From: Mobula hypostoma
Lineage: Eukaryota
NCBI RefSeq assembly: GCF_963921235.1
Contig: NC_086108.1
Coordinates: forward strand, 78,060,001 to 78,124,000
Length of the DNA: 64,000 bases
Direction: 5' to 3'
Position numbers and translations under genes: made by a program. Below are positions 14,854 to 56,019 of the stretch, one piece after another. Position 1 is the stretch's first letter. Each line of letters opens with the position of its first letter. Below the pieces are notes generated by a model. It was not told the origin of the DNA. It searched no databases and worked only from the letters and a program-made list of their open reading frames with translations.

Positions 14854-16384
14854 TCATAGAAACATAGAAAATAGGTGCAGGAGTAGGCCATTCGGCCCTT
14901 CGAGCCTGCACCGCCATTTATTATGATCATGGCTGATCATCCAACTCAGAACCCCACCCCAGCCTTCCCTCCATACCCCCTGACCCCCGTAGCCACAAGG
15001 GCCATATCTAACTCCCTCTTAAATATAGCCAATGAACTGGCCTCAACAGTTTCCTGTGGCAGAGAATTCCACAGATTCACCACTCTCTGTGTGAAGAAGT
15101 TTTTCCTAATCTCGGTCCTAAAAGTCTTCCCCTCTATCCTCAAACTGTGACCCCTCGTTCTGGACTTCCCCAACATCGGGAACAATCTTCCTGCATCTAG
15201 CCTGTCCAATCCCTTTAGGATCTTATACGTTTCAATCAGATCCCCCCTCAATCTTCTAAATTCCAACGAGTACAAGCCCAGTTCATCCAGTCTTTCTTCA
15301 TATGAAAGTCCTGCCATCCCAGGAATCAATCTGTGAACCTTCTTTGTACTCCCTCTATGGCAAAGATGTCTTTCCTCAGATTAGGGGACCAAAACTGCAC
15401 ACAATACTCCAGGTGTGGTCTCACCAAGGCCTTGTACAACTGCAGTAGTACCTCCCTGCTCCTGTACTCGAATCCTCTCGCTATAAATGCCAGCATACCA
15501 TTTGCCTTTTTCACCGCCTGCTGTACCTGCGTGCCCACTTTCAATGACTGGTGTATAATGACACCCAGGTCTCGTTGCACCTCCCCTTTTCCTAATCGGC
15601 CACCATTCAGATAATAATCTGTTTTCCTATTTTTGCCACCAACGTGGATAACTTCACATTTATCCACATTAAATTGCATCTGCCATGAATTTGCCCACTC
15701 ACCCAACCTATCCAAGTCACCCTGCATCCTCTTAGCATCCTCCTCACTGCTAACACTGTCACCCAGCTTCGTGTCATCTGCAAACTTGGAGATGCTGCAT
15801 TTAATTCCCTCATCCAAGTCATTAATATATATTGTAAACAACTGGGGTCCCAGCACTGAGCCTTGCGGTACCCCACTAGTCACCGCCTGCCATTCTGAAA
15901 AGGTCCCGTTTATTCCCACTCTTTGCTTCCTGTCTGCTAACCAATTCTCCACCCACACCAATACCTTACCCCCAATACCGTGTGCTTTAAGTTTGCACAC
16001 TAATCTCCTGTGTGGGACCTTGTCAAAAGCATTTTGAAAATCCAAATATACCACATCCACTGGTTCTCCCCTATCCACTCTACTAGTTACATCCTCAAAA
16101 AATTCTATGAGATTCGTCAGACATGATTTTCCTTTCACAAATCCATGCTGACTTTGTCCGATGATTTCACCGCTTTCCAAATGTGCTGTTATCACATCTT
16201 TGATAACTGACTCCAGCAGTTTCCCCACCACCGATGTTAGGCTAACCGGTCTATAATTCCCCGGTTTCTCTCTCCCTCCTTTTTTAAAAAGTGGGGTTAC
16301 ATTAGCCACCCTCCAATCCTCAGGAACTAGTCCAGAATCTAACGAGTTTTGAAAAATTATCACTAATGCATCCACTATTTCTTA
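14854..16384 (-). mobile_element. Young 5'-truncated CR1 (HER1-like) LINE, RT with one frameshift
   Basis: ORFs 15326-16375 and 14946-15329: YRPVSLTS, YLDFQNAFDKV, GVPQGSVLGP, KFADDTK. (CATAGAAA)n tail. Possible AGGCTT TSD. Confidence 0.95.
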
Positions 16385-32781: not shown

Positions 32782-33427
32782 TATGAATGAGCTCCATTAT
32801 ATTATTAAATTTGGAAATACATCAAATATACAGATTGGCAGGTATGTTGTGGGCATCTAGCCAATAATATAGAAGAAGATACAATAAGTTTTTTCAGATA
32901 TATAAGGAGTAATAAAGAGACGTGTATGCATATCAGACCACTGGAAAATGACATTGTTGAGGTAGTAATGGGGACAAAGAAATAGCGGAGGAACTTATAA
33001 GTATTTTGCATCAGTCTTCACTGCGGAAGACACTTGCAGAATGTCAGATATAAGAGAATGTCAGGAGGCAGAAATGAGTGTCATTGCTATTGCTAAGGAG
33101 AAGATGCCTGGGAAGCTGACAAGCCTGAAGGTAGATAAGTCACTGGACCAGATGGACTACGTCCCAGTGTTCTGTAAGATGCAGCTGAAGAGATTGTACT
33201 GATCTTTCAAGAATCACTAGATTTTGGAATGGTTCCAGAGTATTGTAAAATTATAAATGTCATTTCACTCTTTAAAAAGGGAAGGAGTAACTTCCGGTGA
33301 TGCCATGATTCAGTTTTGACCTGCCTCGCATTCCCTCCCACGAAACTCGAGGAATAATAGCTGTTAGGTTATCTTAGACCATATATGAAAGATATTTTTG
33401 CTTAGTAAAGAATAGAGGAACGTGAGT

Positions 33428-34383
33428 ATGGCGTCTCGGACTTCAAAACACGCTGGAAACCAAGAAATACAAAGAGAAAGCAAAGATAAAAAGATACAGT
33501 TCACTCCAGAACAGGCCGAAGCCAGCAAAGATGATGATATGGCCGTGATACTACGTGAATTGAAAGAGCTGAGAAAAGAAAATCAAGAGTCATTATTAGA
33601 TACCAAGGCATCCCTGCTTAGACCGGAAACTTCGATGACCGACCTGAAGGAACGACTGGATCTACTTGAGCAGAAGTCTATCAAGTCTGAGTCCAGAATT
33701 AGTGCTAACGAGGACGCACGGCATGAGAGAGCACTTAAATACTTGTTGAAGCGAGAAGCCACTCTTACCGCGGTTTATGATGATCTACAGAACTGCTTTC
33801 GAAGAAATAACTTAAGAATCTATCAGATACCTGAGGGTAGTGAGAAAGGAGACATGGAGGGGTTTGTCAAACAGTTAATTAAAACGATGCTTCAGCTGCC
33901 AGATGACTTAAATAATGCACATTGAAAGAGCTCACCGATCTCTAAGCACAAAGCCCACGCTCCATCGTTGTACGCTTCTTGGATTATACAGTGAAAGAGG
34001 CAAAACTGCGTCAAGCATGGGCTCAAAAACAAGTTACGTTTCAAGGCAGAGTCATCTATTTTGATCAGGACTACTTTCCTGAGGTCCAGAAAAGAAGAGC
34101 GAAAGTCCGTGCCGTGATCAAGCAGCGAAGGGAGAAAGGTGTGCGAGCAAGTTGTCGCTTCCCAGCGCAGCTGAGAATACACTTGGATGCTGGACTGAAG
34201 ACCTTTCCTTCCTTGATTGAAGCTTTACCTACACTGAGCAACCTGGGCATCTCCGTGCCGGTGAGTGGGAGGGAGAAGCTGGAGCAGCAGCTCATCAGCG
34301 AGGTATGGCAGGTGCAGCAGAGGGAGCGAGGAGGAGGGAGCACTGCGCTGTCAGAGGCAGACATGAGAGTTCTCCTGACATAA
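33428..34383 (+). pseudogene. L1 ORF1p (coiled coil + RRM + CTD), frameshifted
   Basis: ORFs 33422-33925 and 33979-34383: heptad-rich region, RRNNLRIYQIPEGSE, IYFDQDYFPEVQKRR, RFPAQLRI. Confidence 0.88.
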
Positions 34384-37300
34384 GGAGAGGACGATTTTTT
34401 TTTCGTTCAAAGAAGGAGGTATTATGAATGGTGTCTTCTTCGGACTGATCAATAATTTCTGGTTGTGAGGAATATTTAACTGTCTTCGTCAACATGTGCT
34501 TCTATTTAGCAGTCTAACTGACATACATTGATATACAGTGCAGTTTTATGGGGGGGAGGGAGGGCAAGTTAAATTTTGTTAAGAGAAGGAATTGCCAAGG
34601 GAGGGGAACAACTCAACCAGGGGGATATGTTTTCCCCGAGGTTTGTAGCTATGACAGCACTGTGTGCGTGTTCCCCAGAGAGAAGCAGGTGTCATTACTC
34701 TCTGCCTGATTATCATCAGGGGTTGGTCTTGATAAGAGAAAAAGCAGTCATAATAATTTGTTTTATCAGGAATCTTAAAAGACCAACTGGGTATTTGGAA
34801 GTCTTGTTTGGTTTTGTTGGATTTGTTGTGTTTTGTGGGTTATACTCTTTTGTAAATAGTTCTCTAGGCATTGGCAGGTCTTTACAAGTTTTTCAGTTAT
34901 TAAACTATAAAAATGCCGGGTTTGGTTGAAGGTGGGAGGGGGGAAGTGATGTAGTAAGAGAGATATTGTACTATGGCCACTTTGAACATAATTAGTTATA
35001 ATATTAATGGAATCAATCACCCCATTAAAAGGAAAAGAAATATTGGCTCAGTTGAAAGAACTTAATTGTTCTATAGTTCTATTAAAAGAAACACATTTAG
35101 GAGACATGGAACATAAAAAATTAAAAGAGAGTGGGTAGATCAAGTCTATTATTCATATTGTCCTAATAGTGGAAAGAGAGGAGTTGCAATATTAATTAAC
35201 AGATCAGTTTATTTCATGGTGGAAAAAGACGTTACAGACAAGCAGGGTAGATGTGTGTTAGTTTTGGGCTCTATGGGAGGTGAAGAGTTTACCATCATGA
35301 GCATCTATGCACCGAATGAAGATAATCCCACCTTTTTCAAAGAAGTAGCTGTATTACTTGCCAGGGAAGCTAGAGGTACTGTTATAGTTGGAGGAGACTT
35401 TAATTGTATTCTTAATAGGAGTTTGGATAAATTACCTGGGAATGGGGAACCCCTGAGCAAGAAGTCTAAAGCAGTAAAAATTATGTTGGATGAGCTTGGG
35501 CTGGTTGATGGCTGTAGAGTATTGAATCCAGGTGTCAGGGATTTTAATCATACATCAAGAGCCCATGGCTCATATTCAAGAATTGACCTTATTTGCATCC
35601 CAAAGATGAATCTACATCAGGTGAAGGAATGTGTTATTGAACCCATTACACTGTCAGATCACGCTCCCGTTAAATTTGTACTGAAAGTAGGCTGTGAGTG
35701 GCACTTCAGATATTGGAGACACAATGTTGATGGATCCCTCTTCCTATAATCAACTAAAACAATGCAGTGACGAATATTTTGTGACAAATGACAATGAGGA
35801 GGTTTCCCCCTCGATACTGTGGGAAGGTGCAAGAACCGTGATTAGGGGAAAATGTATTGATTTGGCTGTTCAAGTGAAAAAAATCCCGAAACAAAAAATG
35901 TAATCAGTTACAAAGTAAAATAAAAAGATTAGAACAAACGCACAAATCAACATTGAACAAAGATGATTGGAAAAACCTCCAAAAGTGTAGGGATGCCTTG
36001 AATGAGTTGCTCACATATAAAGTGGAAGGAGCACTTAGATACACAAATCAGAAGTATTATGAGATGGGGAACCGGGCCAGCCGTCTGTTAGCATTTCAGT
36101 TGAGAAAGGCACAGTCTAGTAGAGTTGTACCAAAATTTAGACATCCTTTAACTTTCTCCGAGGTATCGAACCCAAACGATGTAGCAGAGGCATTTAGGGC
36201 CTTCTATAAAGACCTGTATGATTCTTCGGATCCTCCACAAAATAAAGGCAAGCTGGACGAGATTTTAAGAGACATTTGTATAAACAAACTTTCGGAAAAT
36301 GAGATTGTCTCACTGACACAACCAGTCTCAGAACTAGAAATAAAAGATGTTATTAAAACATTAAAAAGTAATAAATCTCCAGGTATGGATGGATTTCTGG
36401 GTGAGTTCTATAACAGAACGGAACTTACTCCAGTTTTATGTAAAGTTTTTAATTATGCTTTGAATGAACATGACCTCCCGGAGAGCTGGTCAGAGGCAAT
36501 CGTATCAGTAATCCACAAGGATAGAAAGGACCCTATAGCTTGTAGTTCATATAGACCAATCAGCCTACTTGGTACTGATGTGAAGATTCTTTGCTCTATT
36601 TGAGCAAAGAGACTACAGAAATATATAGGGATATTGATTAATCCAGATCAAACTGGATTTATTCCAGGCCGCCAGGAGGAAATAATGTTAGAAGAGCTTT
36701 AAATATCCAGTCTTTGCACAGAGATCCATCCAACCTTCAACGCTTCTTAGCTTAGATCCCGAGAAGGCATTTGAAAGGGTGGATTGGATATACTTGGACT
36801 ATACCTTAGAAAAAATGGGCTTTAATGCAACATTTTGAAGTTGAATGAAGATACTGAATAGAGATCCAGTTTCCAGGGTTAGAGTAAATGGATACTGTTC
36901 CAATTTCTTCAGGCTCAAAAGGCGAACCAGACAGGGGAGTCCCCTATCCCCGATATTATTTGCTTAAGCATTGAACCACTGGCTGAGTTAATAAGACAAA
37001 ATGAACAAATTGAGGGTATAACAGATAAAGGAGGTATAATCCACAAGATAGCTTTATTTGTAAATGACATTCTTCTCTTTATAAAAAAAACCCTCTTTCA
37101 TCAGTTCCCCTGCTTATACAATGCTTGAGAAGCTATGGAGAGGTCTCAGGATACAAAGTTAACAAAGTGAAATCTGAAGCTATGATGATTACAAGGACCT
37201 GGCCAAGCCAGCTCGATGATGAAGTGACTTTTCATTGGTCAGGACAGGGTTTTAGATATTTGGGGGTAGTTTACCTCATAGTTCCTCTCAGCTCTTTGCA

Positions 37301-38545
37301 GCCAATTATGTTAAACTTATTAATCAAGTGAGGAGAGATCTTGAACATTGGGAGATGCTTCCTTTATCACTGATAGGTAGAGTAGAAGTGATCAGGATGA
37401 ATATTTTGCCCAGGTTTCTTTTTCTTTTTAATGCTTTACCCATAATAGTTCCCATATCTACTTTTAAAATGTTGGATTGACTCATCAGTAGGTTTATATG
37501 GCAGAAGAAGAGGTCCAGGATGAGATTAAAAGTATTATACTCAAATAAAAAACAGGGAGGTTTAGCTTTACCTCATTTAAAGACCTATTACTGGGCTGCC
37601 CAATTAGGAGCAATTGTGTCATGGATCAGAGAAGATGTGGATTCAAGATGGGTTCACATAGAGCAAAATTCAATTGGTGAGTTATCTTTAGCAGCTCTTC
37701 CCTTTTTAAATCCAAATGTGTAGAAGAATGTTGAGACTCAGAATGAATGGGTTAACTATACATTGAAAGTGTGTGATAGAATTAGGAGAAAATTAGATCT
37801 TCCAAGGTCTATATCAAGGGCAACCAGAATTGCATTCATTTCAGATTTTATTCCAGCAAGACTGGATTCTGGTTTTAACAGGTGGGCACAAAGAGGCCTG
37901 GTTCTTGTGGATCAATTGTTTGATGGTGAGATGCTCAAATCTTTCTCTCAGCTCCAAACTGAATTTGACCTTGTATCAAATGACTTTTATAGATTCCTCC
38001 AAATTAGACATTACCGTACATCACACAAAGAATGGAATAATCTTAAAATACAGCCAAATAATTTTGAAAAATTTTGGATAGAGATCATCATGGGTAGGTC
38101 GCAATCCCAGAAAACTGTATCTTGTCTATATAAGAACATACACCTGGGTACAATGGATAACACGTTAGATGTTAAACATAAGTGGGAATTGGAGGTAAAT
38201 ACCATAATAGAAGAGGAAGAGTGGGAGAGGTCTTGGGAGTCGTGGCATAAATGCTTGAATAGTCCCAACTGGAGGGAATTTGCTTGGAAAATAAGGATGA
38301 GGTACTTTAAAACCCCATTAGTAATATCATTACATGCAGAAAAAAACAGCAGACTTTGCTGGAGGGGCTGTGGCCCAGTGGGAGATTTTGCACATATATT
38401 CTGAGACTGTCCCAAATTAAGGGAATTTTGGTACAGGGTCACTGAGGAAATGAGAAAGATTTTAGATATAAGTATACCCTTTCAACCTAATCATTTAATT
38501 TTAGGTAACCTCCCGCAATTTGCACTAGAGAAGAATAAACTATAC

Positions 38546-38803
38546 CTGGACCTGAGACAGGTTTTTCAAGTCGCCTATGTTATCATTAAAGCAGCAAATT
38601 CTCCACGTCCTGGCAACTGGGTTTTGTAGCGCTCAATCGATGGCATTACATTTGAACCATGGCAGTACTGTGCCACAAGTGATACTGAATGCTTGACCCG
38701 ATACAACATTGCACCTCGAATTGGGCCGCCAACCTACAAAAGAGATGATGAAGTGATCTGCACTTCTTATTATTCCAGGCTCGTCCCAGTGGAGCATGAA
38801 GAG
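38546..38803 (+). pseudogene. LAMA1: Laminin alpha-1 LN-domain fragment, partially processed retrocopy
   Basis: Manual translation gives [85 protein letters not shown]. This matches the laminin alpha LN domain with LAMA1-type residues ([28 protein letters not shown]) rather than LAMA2-type. In-frame TAG at 38627-38629. Followed by GTAATG at 38804. Confidence 0.93.
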
Positions 38804-38889
38804 GTAATGTCATCTTCATAGAAAGATATCAAATACCTGCTGGAAGGTGCGTTTTAAAATAGGGTTCTGGTGGATCACCCATCACTCAA

Positions 38890-39288
38890 TACAGGAGTTG
38901 GGATGTTCTGTTGAAGTTGGATTAAATATTGCTGAGGCCAACTTTTGAGTAATGCGTGCAGTTCGTCTACTTACAGGGAAGATACCAGTAAGCTGAAAAG
39001 AGTGCAGGAATGTTGCCGAGACTCAAGAGCCTGAGTTACTGGGAAAGGTTGAATCAGTTAGGACATTGTTTCTTGGAGCGTAGGAGAATAAGGGAGGATT
39101 TGATAGAGCTATACAAAATTATGAGAGGTATAGACAGGGGTAAATACAAGCAGGCTTTTTTCCCACAGAGGCTGGGTGAGACTAGAGCTAGAAATCAAAC
39201 GTTTACTGGAGGTGAAAGCTGAAATTTTTAAAGGTAATCTGAAGGGAAACTTCTTCACTCAGAGGGTGTTGTAGAAAGAACTGCCAGA
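38890..39288 (+). mobile_element. Older CR1 fragment inside the LAMA1 insert
   Basis: MLPRLKSLSYWERLNQLG..LERRR..DLIELYKIMRGIDR. Stops abruptly where the younger CR1 begins. Confidence 0.8.
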
Positions 39289-39695
39289 AGTTTATTCTTT
39301 GGAGCGTAGAAGGTTGAGGGGGGACTTGATAGAGGTATTTAAAATTATGAAGGGGGATAGATAGAGTTGTCGTGGATAGGCTTTTTCCATTGAGATTGGG
39401 GGAGATTCAAACAAGAGGACATGAGTTGAGAGTTAAAGGGCAAAAATTTAGGGGTAACATGAGGGGGATCTTCTTTACTCAGAAAGTGGTAGCTGTGTGG
39501 AACGAGCTTCCAGCAGAAGTGGTTGAGGCAGGTTCGATTTTGTCGTTTAAAGGTAAATTGGATAGATATATGGACAGGAAAGGAATGGAGGGTTATGGGC
39601 TGAGTGCAGGTCGGTGGGACTAGGTGAAAGTAAGAGTTCGGCACAGACTAGAAGGGCTGAGATGGCCTGTTTCCGTGCTGTAATTGTTATATGGT
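39289..39695 (+). mobile_element. Young CR1 3' end with (TTATATGG)n tail, terminating the LAMA1 insert
   Basis: RGHELRV..FFTQKVVAVWNELP..FKGKLDRYM, 3' UTR hairpin, tail GTTATATGGTTATAT. Confidence 0.88.
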
Positions 39696-41112
39696 TATAT
39701 ATGTTAAGAGTCTTGATTTTGATTGCTCATAAAATGATAACTGTCAACTGGCTTAAACCTCGCCCACCCACTTTGAAACAATAGATACAGAGACTGAAAG
39801 AAGTGAACTGTATGGAAAATATCACTGCAAGTCTACAACTGAAAATGGACTCTTACTTGGAAAGATGGAACTCTGTTATAGTGTACCTGGCACCGTGAAA
39901 GGCCCTTACAGGAGCCTGGGAAAATGTGGGACTTGAGTTGATTTACTGAAGACTGTGATTTTATTTAAAATAGATGTAAATCTACATTGAGGGGTGATGT
40001 AAAGTATGTAGATCATGTGTATGTTTGTGTTTGTATGCAATTATATGTATGTGCTCTTTGTTTCTTTTTTCTCTTACTCCTGTTCTGGTATTGTTAATAT
40101 AGATATTTACCATTGTGCAGTGAACTGTGGACTAATAGCTGATGCTTGTTTGTTGATATGTGTTTGTTCAATAAACTTTTTAAAAAAAGGGAAGGAGCCA
40201 GAAGAAAGGAAATTATAGGCCAGCTAGCCTGACTTCAGTGGTTGGAAAGATGTCGGAGTCTACTATTAAGGATGAGGTTTCGGGGTACTTTGAGGTATAT
40301 GATAATACAGGTCAAAGTCAGCATGGTGTTCTAAAGGAGAAATCTTGCCTGACAAATCAGTGGAATTCTTTGAGGAAATAACAAGCAGGATAGACAAAGG
40401 AGATTCAGTGGATATTGTTTATTTGGATTTTCAGAAGGCCTTTGACAAGATGCAGCACAAGCTAGAGCCCTTGATGTTATAGGAAAGGTACCAGCATGGA
40501 TAGAATATTGGGTGGCTGGCAGGAAACAAAGAGTGGGAACAAAGGAGGCCTTTTCTAGTTGGCTGCTGGTGACTAGTGGTGTGCCACAGGGGTTGATGCT
40601 GGGACTGTTTTCACATTGTTTGTCAATGATTCCGATGAAGGAATTGATGGCTTTGTAGCCAAGTTTGTGGACTATACAAAGATAGGTGGAGGAACAAGTT
40701 GTGTTGAGGAAGCAGAATGTCTGCAGGAGGAGTTAGATTGGGGAAATGGACAAATAAGTGGCAGATGAAATATAATGTAGGGAAATGCACGGCCATACAC
40801 CTTGGCAGAAGGAAAAAACTATGTGGACTATTTTCATAATGGGAAGGAAATTTAAAAATCAGAGGTGCAGAGAGACTTGGGAGTGCTTATGCAGATTCCC
40901 GATAGGTTATCTTGCAGGTTGAGTGGATTGTGAGAAAGGCAAATGCAATGTTAGCATTCACTTCGAGGAGACACTAGAATACAAATCAAGGATGTAATGC
41001 TGAAGGCTTTATGAGGCATTAGTCAGATTTTACTTGGAGTATTGTGAGCAGTTTTGGGTTCCTTATCTAAGAAAACTTGTGCTAGCATTGGAGAGGGTCC
41101 AGAGTAGGTTCA

Positions 41113-54548: not shown

Positions 54549-55298
54549 CAGACATCCCACCCTGCAAAAGCTCATTTCAGGAAGGTAGCATCATCAATTT
54601 GCGGGAGACTTCCGGGAGAGGTGGGATGTCTGCAATAGAATAGCTCCTTAGCAGCTGGCCAGCTAGTTTAAATAACGTTAGCTATACTAATGAACGAATG
54701 ACACCTGTTAAACTCACCTCAACATGTCTTTTACATTTTAACCCACCATGGGCAATAGAAAAGTCACTGTTGCAAACAGTGCAGCGAGCAACACTGTCAT
54801 TATTTTGACCCCTATTAGACAGGGGTACACTTTAGTGGGGTGACGTATGTTTTATTTTTTTTTTGGAACACTCTGCAATGGTGCGCTCTCTCTCTCTCTC
54901 TCTCTCTCGTGGTCGCTCGCGCGCTCTCGCTTGCTCTCTGTCTCGCTGGCTGTCTCTCTCTTGCTTTCTCTCTCGCTCTCTCTCTCTCTCTCACTTGCTT
55001 TCTCACTCTCTCGCTGGCTCTCTCTCTCTCGCTTGCTTTCGCTCTCGCTTTCTGGCTCGCTTGCTCTCTCTTGCTTTCTCACTCTCTCGCTCGCTTGCCT
55101 TCACTCTCGCTTGCTTTCTCTCTCACTCTCTCTCTCTCTCTCTCTCTCTCTCGTCACTCTCGCGCTCTCTCTTGCTTTTCTCTCGCTCGCTCTCAAAAAA
55201 ATTGATTTCCGTGATATTGTATATAATTTGCGGGCATCAGGGAGCCACTATTAATATGCGGGAGACTCTCGGAAGTTCTGGGAGAGGTGGGATGTCTG
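54549..55298. mobile_element. hAT-like non-autonomous element with an internal CT/CTCG microsatellite
   Basis: TIRs CAGACATCCCACC / GGTGGGATGTCTG, an extra TIR copy at ~54620-54632, TGTAAATA at both ends. Confidence 0.72.
54885..55194. repeat. Compound (CT)n/(CTCG)n/(CTTG)n microsatellite
   Basis: Directly visible; explains the five overlapping low-complexity ORFs. Confidence 0.95.
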
Positions 55299-56019
55299 TA
55301 AATATTGGGAATCCAGATTCCCATCTCCCTGTGCTGATGTTAATTATTATCAAAAGGCCATTTGAGCTACCCTGTGTGAATAGAATTTGTGACAACTGTG
55401 GCAGCTTCGACTGAGCTTTCGTTATCTGTTCATTGACCAGAATTGGAATTAGGTTTAATATCACCAGATAGATCACAGCACAAAGTATATTCAAACGACA
55501 GAAAAGTTCACTGGCAGTAAAGTAAATAATACTTCTAACATATTCATGGTTTTGTGACTGAGGGCTGCGTTCCAGCAAGAAAGTCATGGGCCCAGTTCCC
55601 AGCGTGACCTGTCTCTTGAATTCCCTCAGCCTCACTTAACTTCAAAAGGACACAAGACCAGTTCCTGCAAGACAAAACATATTTTCTTTAGGGAACATAG
55701 ATAGAATTGTTGTTGCTGAACTAACGGCACTAATTATAACCCTCACTGACTGATCTCACTCAGCAGACTAGTCTGGAGGAAGGATTTAACAATTAATTGG
55801 CTAATAATAATATGCATTCTTTAGCTTAGGAAATAATAAACGAATTGACCTGACAGCAGAATGACTAAGTTCATCTATCTTTGTGAGTTATACCAATCAG
55901 GAGTTTCCAGGCTTGGACTGAATTAGTTGAGCTTACCTAGATAGTAAATCTCCGTGTTTTTAGATACCAGGTTTGGGTTGGGTTTTAGGTATTTAATCCT
56001 CCACAATATTCCATGTGGG

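Follow-up and report, generated by a model that had tools for sequence, protein, structure and literature searches.

The locus described here raises the question of how a complete laminin exon, joined to the end of the exon preceding it and followed by the start of the next intron, came to lie inside a decayed LINE on a different contig from the gene. The window, that is, the whole stretch of DNA analysed, covers 64,000 nucleotides (G000:C50:78060001-78124000) of a source genome of 3.48 Gb. CR1 elements are held to copy almost exclusively RNAs that carry their own tail, and this is the usual reason offered for the small number of retrogenes in CR1-dominated genomes (passages in PMC5470649 and PMC3136929). 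The low number of chicken retrocopies has been ascribed to CR1 (PMC3136929), and sequence recognition by CR1 is described as limiting which cellular RNAs are copied, partially processed retrogenes being known to exist (PMC5470649). In this study, we compare the insert with its parent gene, LAMA1, with its host L1 and with the CR1 family at its 3' end, and show that it is of RNA origin and partially spliced.

The insert and its LAMA1 parent

The insert, a LAMA1 retrocopy, occupies positions 38546-39695/39700 on contig C50, and the parent gene is located on C1. Measured against the parent, it comprises, in order, the last 15 nt of one exon, the 243-nt exon that follows and 0.9 kb of the next intron. 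The 15 nt (38546..38560, plus strand), which form the 5'-truncated end of the copy, were identical at 15/15 positions to C1:163076312-163076298, the end of an upstream LAMA1 exon with a GT donor directly after it, 36.7 kb upstream of the 243-nt exon. The latter was present in full (38561..38803, plus strand; Laminin_N domain), with 10/243 mismatches to C1:163039615-163039373 on the minus strand, where the parent exon has an open frame and a pyrimidine-rich AG acceptor in front. Translation of 38546-38803 gave LDLRQ followed by VFQ..., interrupted by a single in-frame, premature stop at 38627. An earlier sequence-only reading of the window had held that five codons, LDLRQ, were joined to a 243-nt LAMA1 exon, and had named contiguity of LDLRQ with VFQ in genomic LAMA1 as the sign of a DNA-level duplication; the two proved to belong to consecutive parent exons, presumably exons 3 and 4, parted by an intron of 36.7 kb on C1. 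It was also considered whether the 16 nt in front of the exon might be the end of an intron or contain a cryptic acceptor; this was ruled out, as the parent acceptor differs and the 15 nt are those of the previous exon.

Downstream of the exon, the insert runs through an unspliced GT donor into the first part of the next intron (38804..38895, plus strand; 7/92 mismatches to the parent intron), the right boundary of which is approximate (38880-38895). The unique intron stretch in the insert is about 80-92 nt long; the proposed ~85 nt of intron-like DNA is present, its length being approximate. There follows an old CR1 fragment of the parent intron (38896..39291, plus strand), which is interrupted by a young CR1 and is 92% identical to the parent copy, with at most 79% identity to the other 38 genomic places listed. 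As had been predicted, the insert from 38804 onward was colinear with the following LAMA1 intron, with the donor retained, and 38559-39699 formed one alignment with C1:163039617-163038476 at 93.9% identity. The next parent exon starts near C1:163019670, which gives this intron a length of ~19.7 kb. The succession of an old CR1 and a young CR1 ending in its tail, noticed earlier in the insert, was found in the parent intron with the same junction.

The parent exon matched Laminin_N in Pfam, and its best PDB match was laminin alpha-1 (8dmk_A, E 1.4e-45), with alpha-5 at 2.7e-23 and no alpha-2 chain among the PDB matches listed for it; the assignment of the parent to alpha-1 rather than alpha-2 leans partly on the paralog on C2. 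This LAMA2-like paralog was ruled out as the source, being only 79% identical. C58 was also seen to hold a pair of adjacent Laminin_N genes (74653985-74718565 and 74890171-74915589) whose exons follow the same pattern, and C66 two more.

The spliced exon-exon junction occurs once in the 3.48 Gb, in the window (pattern search, 2 mismatches allowed), and the old-CR1/young-CR1 junction at exactly two places in the genome, the parent and the window. A genome search using 38545-38940 as query returned the window, one 96% match on C1, the 79% paralog on C2 and short old-CR1 matches (best 40 of 312 candidates). No sibling copies from the same intronic CR1 were found in the DNA searches (best 40 of 312 and best 40 of 7,407 candidates) or in the genome-wide pattern search. 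The exons of the copy are joined exactly at the parent splice sites, and the copy lies at a dispersed, unrelated site, the point of insertion being crossed without a break in paralogous L1 sites (paralogs, not an orthologous empty site). A DNA-level duplication or break repair with exact intron loss, or an error of assembly, is extremely improbable as the origin of this structure. Against it stand the loss of 36.7 kb exact at both splice sites, ~6% divergence from the parent with a stop codon of the copy's own, and an L1 frame that rejoins across the insert as in paralogs.

Contigs from sequencing runs bear on the same alternative. Four of the 24 listed runs were examined (X1, X5, X9 and X10; all Logan contigs), and 65,255 contig pieces lay outside those listed. 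Run X1 yielded a copy-type contig (0 differences) beside parent-type contigs (7 and 14 differences), and X5, which carries another species label, yielded one that spans 38559-38919 and has the stop allele at 38627. The contigs of X5 and X10 both begin exactly at 38559, the point where the spliced and unspliced forms diverge. These observations speak against misassembly of the insert, which is unlikely, whereas two others lend some support to an assembly error or a DNA-level event: X1 may be the assembly's own sample, and no contig among those listed bridged the L1 junctions with 31 letters on each side. The X10 contig (organism C) is of the parent type, with 23 differences, and its start at 38559 is a weak hint of a copy in organism C. 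In X9 (the same label as X5, and RNA by guess), the sense allele was found and the spliced junction, that of the normal message, was crossed, with the match running from 38546; among the X9 contigs listed, none extended over the start of the intron or over the greater part of the exon's end, and this run is uninformative on intron-retaining RNA. At 38645, the A of the copy was also seen in the RNA-type contig of X9 (organism B), with G in the genome parent, the X1 parent-type contig and X10, a pattern that may reflect recurrent CpG decay, an old polymorphism or conversion.

The host L1, the insertion ends and the CR1 tail

The insert lies in a full-length, decayed LINE (33288..40183, plus strand; end approximate), which we take to be an L1 on its anatomy and on characteristic motifs rather than on a repeat library, and which has open reading frames, an endonuclease (Pfam PF03372), AATAAA and an A-rich end. 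Its frames include an ORF1-like frame (33416-33925), the endonuclease (35117-35749) and C-terminal ORF2 frames, and no Pfam family was found for three scanned host L1 frames. It is flanked by a 14-bp target duplication (33274-33287 / 40184-40197). Copies of the host L1 are mostly 88-92% identical to one another, which makes the family older than the insertion. The family is small (32 candidates). The element together with its duplication (33274-40197) was itself inserted in an older CR1, halves of which lie on both sides, and the nested order is thus old CR1, then L1, then LAMA1 retrocopy.

The position of the insert in L1 ORF2, and the restoration of the L1 frame on its removal, were confirmed: the insert sits in the C-terminal part of ORF2, removal of 38546-39700 gives a 9-mer present exactly in 9/14 L1 paralogs, and the reading frame rejoins as it does in the paralogs. 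On the left, the copy is preceded by the target sequence TATAC (38541..38545, plus strand; L1 codons K-L-Y). The place of 38545 is occupied by C in 13/14 paralogous L1 sites, which were picked from the best of 36 matches, and by T in parent LAMA1; 38545 is therefore L1 sequence, and the copy starts at 38546, not at 38545 where its start had been put before. On the right, TATAT (39696..39700, plus strand) is an overlap of CR1 tail and L1 target, with microhomology and a possible duplication of 4-5 bp. Since the young CR1 of the parent ends in ...GGTTATA, the right-hand TATA (39696-39699) is common to template and target. Of the two TATA bounds that had been proposed, the left one stands as target sequence and the right one fails as a clean duplication, being templated by the parent, and the target site duplication appears ambiguous for that reason. 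Three readings fit the site, each of them short: a duplication of 5 bp (TATAC / TATAT) in which a transition has since occurred, one of 4 bp, or 38546-39700 inserted blunt.

The 3' part of the insert is a young, 5'-truncated CR1 (39292..39700, plus strand), made up of the end of ORF2 and the 3' UTR, in sense orientation to LAMA1, with its 5' junction as in the parent and 95-96% identity to family members. The clade label is one that we assume from characteristic motifs and the hairpin and octamer tail, in place of a repeat library. In the parent, the young CR1 carries its own AAGT duplication and is nested in an older CR1 of the same orientation, close to the latter's 3' end (L002:741-1145 = G000:C1:163038476-163038880), and it has three single-base deletions that are absent from the copy and the family. 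The tail of the older CR1 lies ~160 nt beyond the young tail in the same parent intron, and the copy stops at the young tail. Longer members of the young family have a reverse transcriptase 55-61% identical to an RVT_1 frame of the window. That frame (15326-16381, minus strand), an open CR1-type reverse transcriptase frame of 351 aa (RVT_1, E 3e-34), appears to belong to a different, fairly recent CR1 family.

The copy terminates in the CR1 3' tail (39631..39700, plus strand), a hairpin followed by the 8-mer repeat GGTTATAT, and this repeat is present in the tails of the family (29 members compared). In amniotes, the CR1 recognition site is described as a hairpin plus octamer (passages in PMC4316615 and PMC8665684). 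The tail of the parent folded with a z of -2.41 (3/200 shuffles as good) and that of the copy with a z of -1.39 (20/200), and the last 61 nt of the copy alone folded no better than shuffles (z -0.49). Two marks of a trans-mobilised RNA were found, namely a 3' end that is the tail of a LINE family and a hairpin with a short terminal repeat. Genome-wide, 18,903 such tails were counted (1 mismatch allowed; 0 in the reversed control), or one per 368 kb per strand, from which the chance of a random end falling within 5 nt of a sense tail is about 3e-5. No candidate duplication of more than 7 bp was found in the 23/29 family members with a 5' end inside the fetched locus, the other 6/29 having run past it and been excluded; the search was loose, with matches of 4-5 bp about as frequent as expected by chance, and it is informative only in that long duplications were lacking. 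At the CpG of the tail hairpin (39644-39645), the TG form was counted 2,632 times, double the 1,196 of the CA form; since G, the predicted partner in the stem, would be preserved in TG, a TG subfamily may have been active.

The insert has no poly(A), and its target duplication is at most 5 bp, compared with 14 bp for the host L1. Both marks of a classical L1 processed pseudogene, a 3' poly(A) and a long duplication of the TT/AAAA type, were hence absent, and a CR1-like rather than an L1-like insertion signature is supported. The L1 machinery might still have primed internally on the pre-mRNA, in the manner of tailless retropseudogenes, the end at a CR1 tail then being a coincidence or an effect of AT richness. 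The genome does have an L1 family with an A-tail and a 14-bp duplication, and the 4 nt of complementarity between target and template are also a feature of the tailless type, which is reported to insert at TT/WAAAAWW targets and to duplicate 8-35 nt (passages in PMC5322556). With at most 5 bp duplicated, no target of that kind, a chance of about 3e-5 for a coincidental tail end, and a sampled L1 family (one family was sampled) that predates the insertion, internal priming by L1 is very improbable.

Age of the copy and priming on the intronic tail

Mismatches between copy and parent were, part by part, 0/15, 10/243, 7/92, 28/398 and 18/402. Nine codons of the exon had changed (5 missense, 1 stop and 3 silent). 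The copy lies 9 and the parent 10 substitutions from the majority of the CR1 family, for which the mean is 8.9 (29 members) or 9.6 (49 members), a mean biased downwards by the choice of members according to their likeness to copy or parent. Distances so near the family mean indicate that the copy was made during the burst of the family, with the partner LINE then active. The retrocopy is dead and without sign of function, its frame being broken by the stop at 38627, and no RNA contig over the L1 junction was found among those shown from one run. It is the only copy in the genome, whereas many would be expected of a SINE family. The remainder of the window is largely decayed LINE sequence: a Pfam scan of 42 further frames (71 frames of at least 95 aa listed) gave retroelement matches only, and over the 42 + 5 frames scanned nothing was matched but reverse transcriptase, endonuclease and, once, where a reverse transcriptase frame ends, ALKBH8_N. 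A long low-complexity CT-rich repeat at 54819-55414 has spurious open frames.

The explanation that we favour, and consider probable, is priming in trans by a CR1 reverse transcriptase, for which the intronic tail in a partly spliced LAMA1 RNA served as template. Events began with the landing of a young CR1 fragment, in sense, in the LAMA1 intron, 0.5 kb behind the exon, where it is found in the parent today. While the family was still active, CR1 ORF2 protein would have attached itself to the tail, hairpin and 8-mer, of a LAMA1 transcript that had lost the upstream intron and retained the next. In all likelihood this was a germ-line RNA that was still nascent or had terminated early, and either its own end lay at the tail or priming was internal. 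The enzyme would then have nicked a TATA-containing site in the dead L1 on another contig, 4 nt of the target would have paired with the tail repeat, and reverse transcription would have run 1.15 kb upstream through the CR1, the intron and the exon, with a drop-off 15 nt into the previous exon, where the copy ends. The product would be a one-off, dead-on-arrival retrocopy, equivalent to a 5' transduction in which the mobilising element is a non-autonomous CR1 tail within an intron. The steps of nicking, pairing and copying are inferred from target-primed reverse transcription and from the trans assay of UnaL2, an element of the L2 clade and not the CR1 of the insert; in that system, mobilisation in trans is reported to require no cis element besides the 3' tail, with reverse transcription starting at the terminal repeat and slippage (passages in PMC1636434).

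Direct priming is favoured by the exact removal of the 36.7-kb intron with the next donor kept, by the end at the young tail and not at the older one, by the lack of poly(A) and the short duplication, by the fit in time with the burst of the family, by the 5' junction of the CR1 in the copy, which is the parent's own, and by the agreement of copy and parent at four non-CpG variable sites (39337, 39359, 39563 and 39566), a haplotype carried by 18/49 members. The same haplotype counts against a homologous template switch, in which the enzyme would have had an ordinary CR1 RNA as its first template and crossed to the LAMA1 pre-mRNA where the intronic CR1 matched it. In that case, the intronic element served for landing and not for priming, host exons still having been moved because of it. 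Such a switch would fit the 409-nt CR1 part, in which no private substitution was common to copy and parent and the one shared indel state occurred also in 2/49 other members, so that this part may derive from an element other than the parent's. It would also fit the last base of the copy (39700), which matches the family tail and not the parent, and the slightly lower divergence of the young CR1 (18/402) than of the intron and old CR1 (35/490; p = 0.12). LINE template-switch chimeras such as U6-L1 are a known class, as is 5' transduction by L1 and SVA. No new junction was found of the kind that marks such chimeras, the host-CR1 junction existing already in the parent, though a switch within homologous CR1 would leave none. 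As it requires one extra rare event and must accommodate the shared haplotype, we regard the switch as rather unlikely.

Site 39645 was tried as a subfamily marker for the switch, since A was present in 24/29 of the matches nearest the copy against 1/20 of those nearest the parent, and it was ruled out as a case of CpG decay unlinked to ten other sites (genome-wide CA 1,196, CG 5,371 and TG 2,632, or 13% A). The apparent signal is ordinary decay inflated by similarity-picked matches; the comparison of copy, parent and family showed neither a shared private substitution nor a sign of a switch.

If priming took place directly on the intronic tail, the want of a shared private substitution requires that the retrocopy was made soon after the CR1 insertion; the probability that none is shared is 0.39 if it was made within a tenth of the age and 0.06 if within three tenths. 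A short delay is likely, given the activity window of the enzyme. The intronic CR1 is the reason why the exon moved, under direct priming and switch alike. Thus, of the CR1-tail retroposition originally proposed for the insert, the RNA origin, the partial splicing and the end at a sense tail are upheld, and the intronic tail as primer is the simplest reading, a homologous switch being the less likely alternative.

Relation to known systems and wider meaning

LINEs have been divided into classes with stringent and relaxed recognition of the tail (PMC3747384), and partner pairs are listed as HE1/HER1 for sharks and rays and UnaL2/UnaSINE in the eel (passages in PMC1636434 and PMC3747384). Like the RNAs mobilised in those pairs, as described in these sources, the RNA copied here ends in a LINE hairpin and a short repeat, without poly(A). 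Unlike UnaSINE, which is headed by a small RNA, the passenger is a protein-coding pre-mRNA with the tail far inside an intron, present as a single copy and not as a family. Exact intron loss, 5' truncation, a dispersed site and decay are shared with processed pseudogenes and partially processed retrocopies (passages in PMC5470649), from which the insert differs in having no poly(A) and no long duplication and in ending within an intron at a CR1 tail. With tailless retropseudogenes, as characterised in PMC5322556, it shares a 3' end inside the source RNA and complementarity between target and template, whereas its duplication and target motif do not match theirs and it ends at a CR1 recognition signal. 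Host sequence carried 5' of a retroelement end is also seen in 5' transduction by L1 or SVA and in U6-L1 chimeras; unlike these, the insert shows no splicing into the element, which is a non-coding fragment of 409 nt, and its host-CR1 junction pre-exists in the parent. The insert is a retrocopy. In the way it works it resembles the trans mobilisation of SINEs, but it belongs neither with them nor with the processed pseudogenes of the L1 type.

In the literature covered, which consists mostly of titles and abstracts with subscription journals thinly represented, no retroposition of host exons via an intronic CR1 tail is described. Trans mobilisation through LINE tails is known; what appears to be new is that the RNA retroposed was a host transcript, spliced in part, and that the CR1 tail used lay embedded in it. 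The case follows from the stringent-recognition model, and it fits the CR1 rule instead of overturning it. At this locus, nature has put the converse of that rule to a clean test: a host transcript that contained the tail, 0.9 kb into a 19.7-kb intron, was copied. This suggests that CR1 tails can let a choosy copying enzyme move host exons. The copy also preserves a snapshot of splicing order, with the upstream intron gone and the downstream intron present, which suggests that the CR1 enzyme can meet unfinished nuclear RNA.

It is conceivable, although we put it forward with considerable doubt, that CR1 tails lying in sense in introns regularly make nascent, partly spliced transcripts eligible for retroposition as long as the CR1 family concerned is active. 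The locus provides a precise signature for a genome-wide screen. Such retrocopies would be missed by standard screens, since the screen described in PMC3136929 drops candidates that have retained introns, that have one intron fewer than the parent or that consist of more than half repeats (passages in that paper). If the proposal is correct, the scarcity of retrocopies in CR1 genomes would partly be an effect of counting, and CR1-rich genomes would hold hidden exon-plus-intron retrocopies ending in CR1 tails. A general route of exon shuffling via intronic CR1 tails is offered as a proposal that rests on one event, a single broken copy; in that case, copies landing in introns could donate exons that bring with them a ready splice donor.
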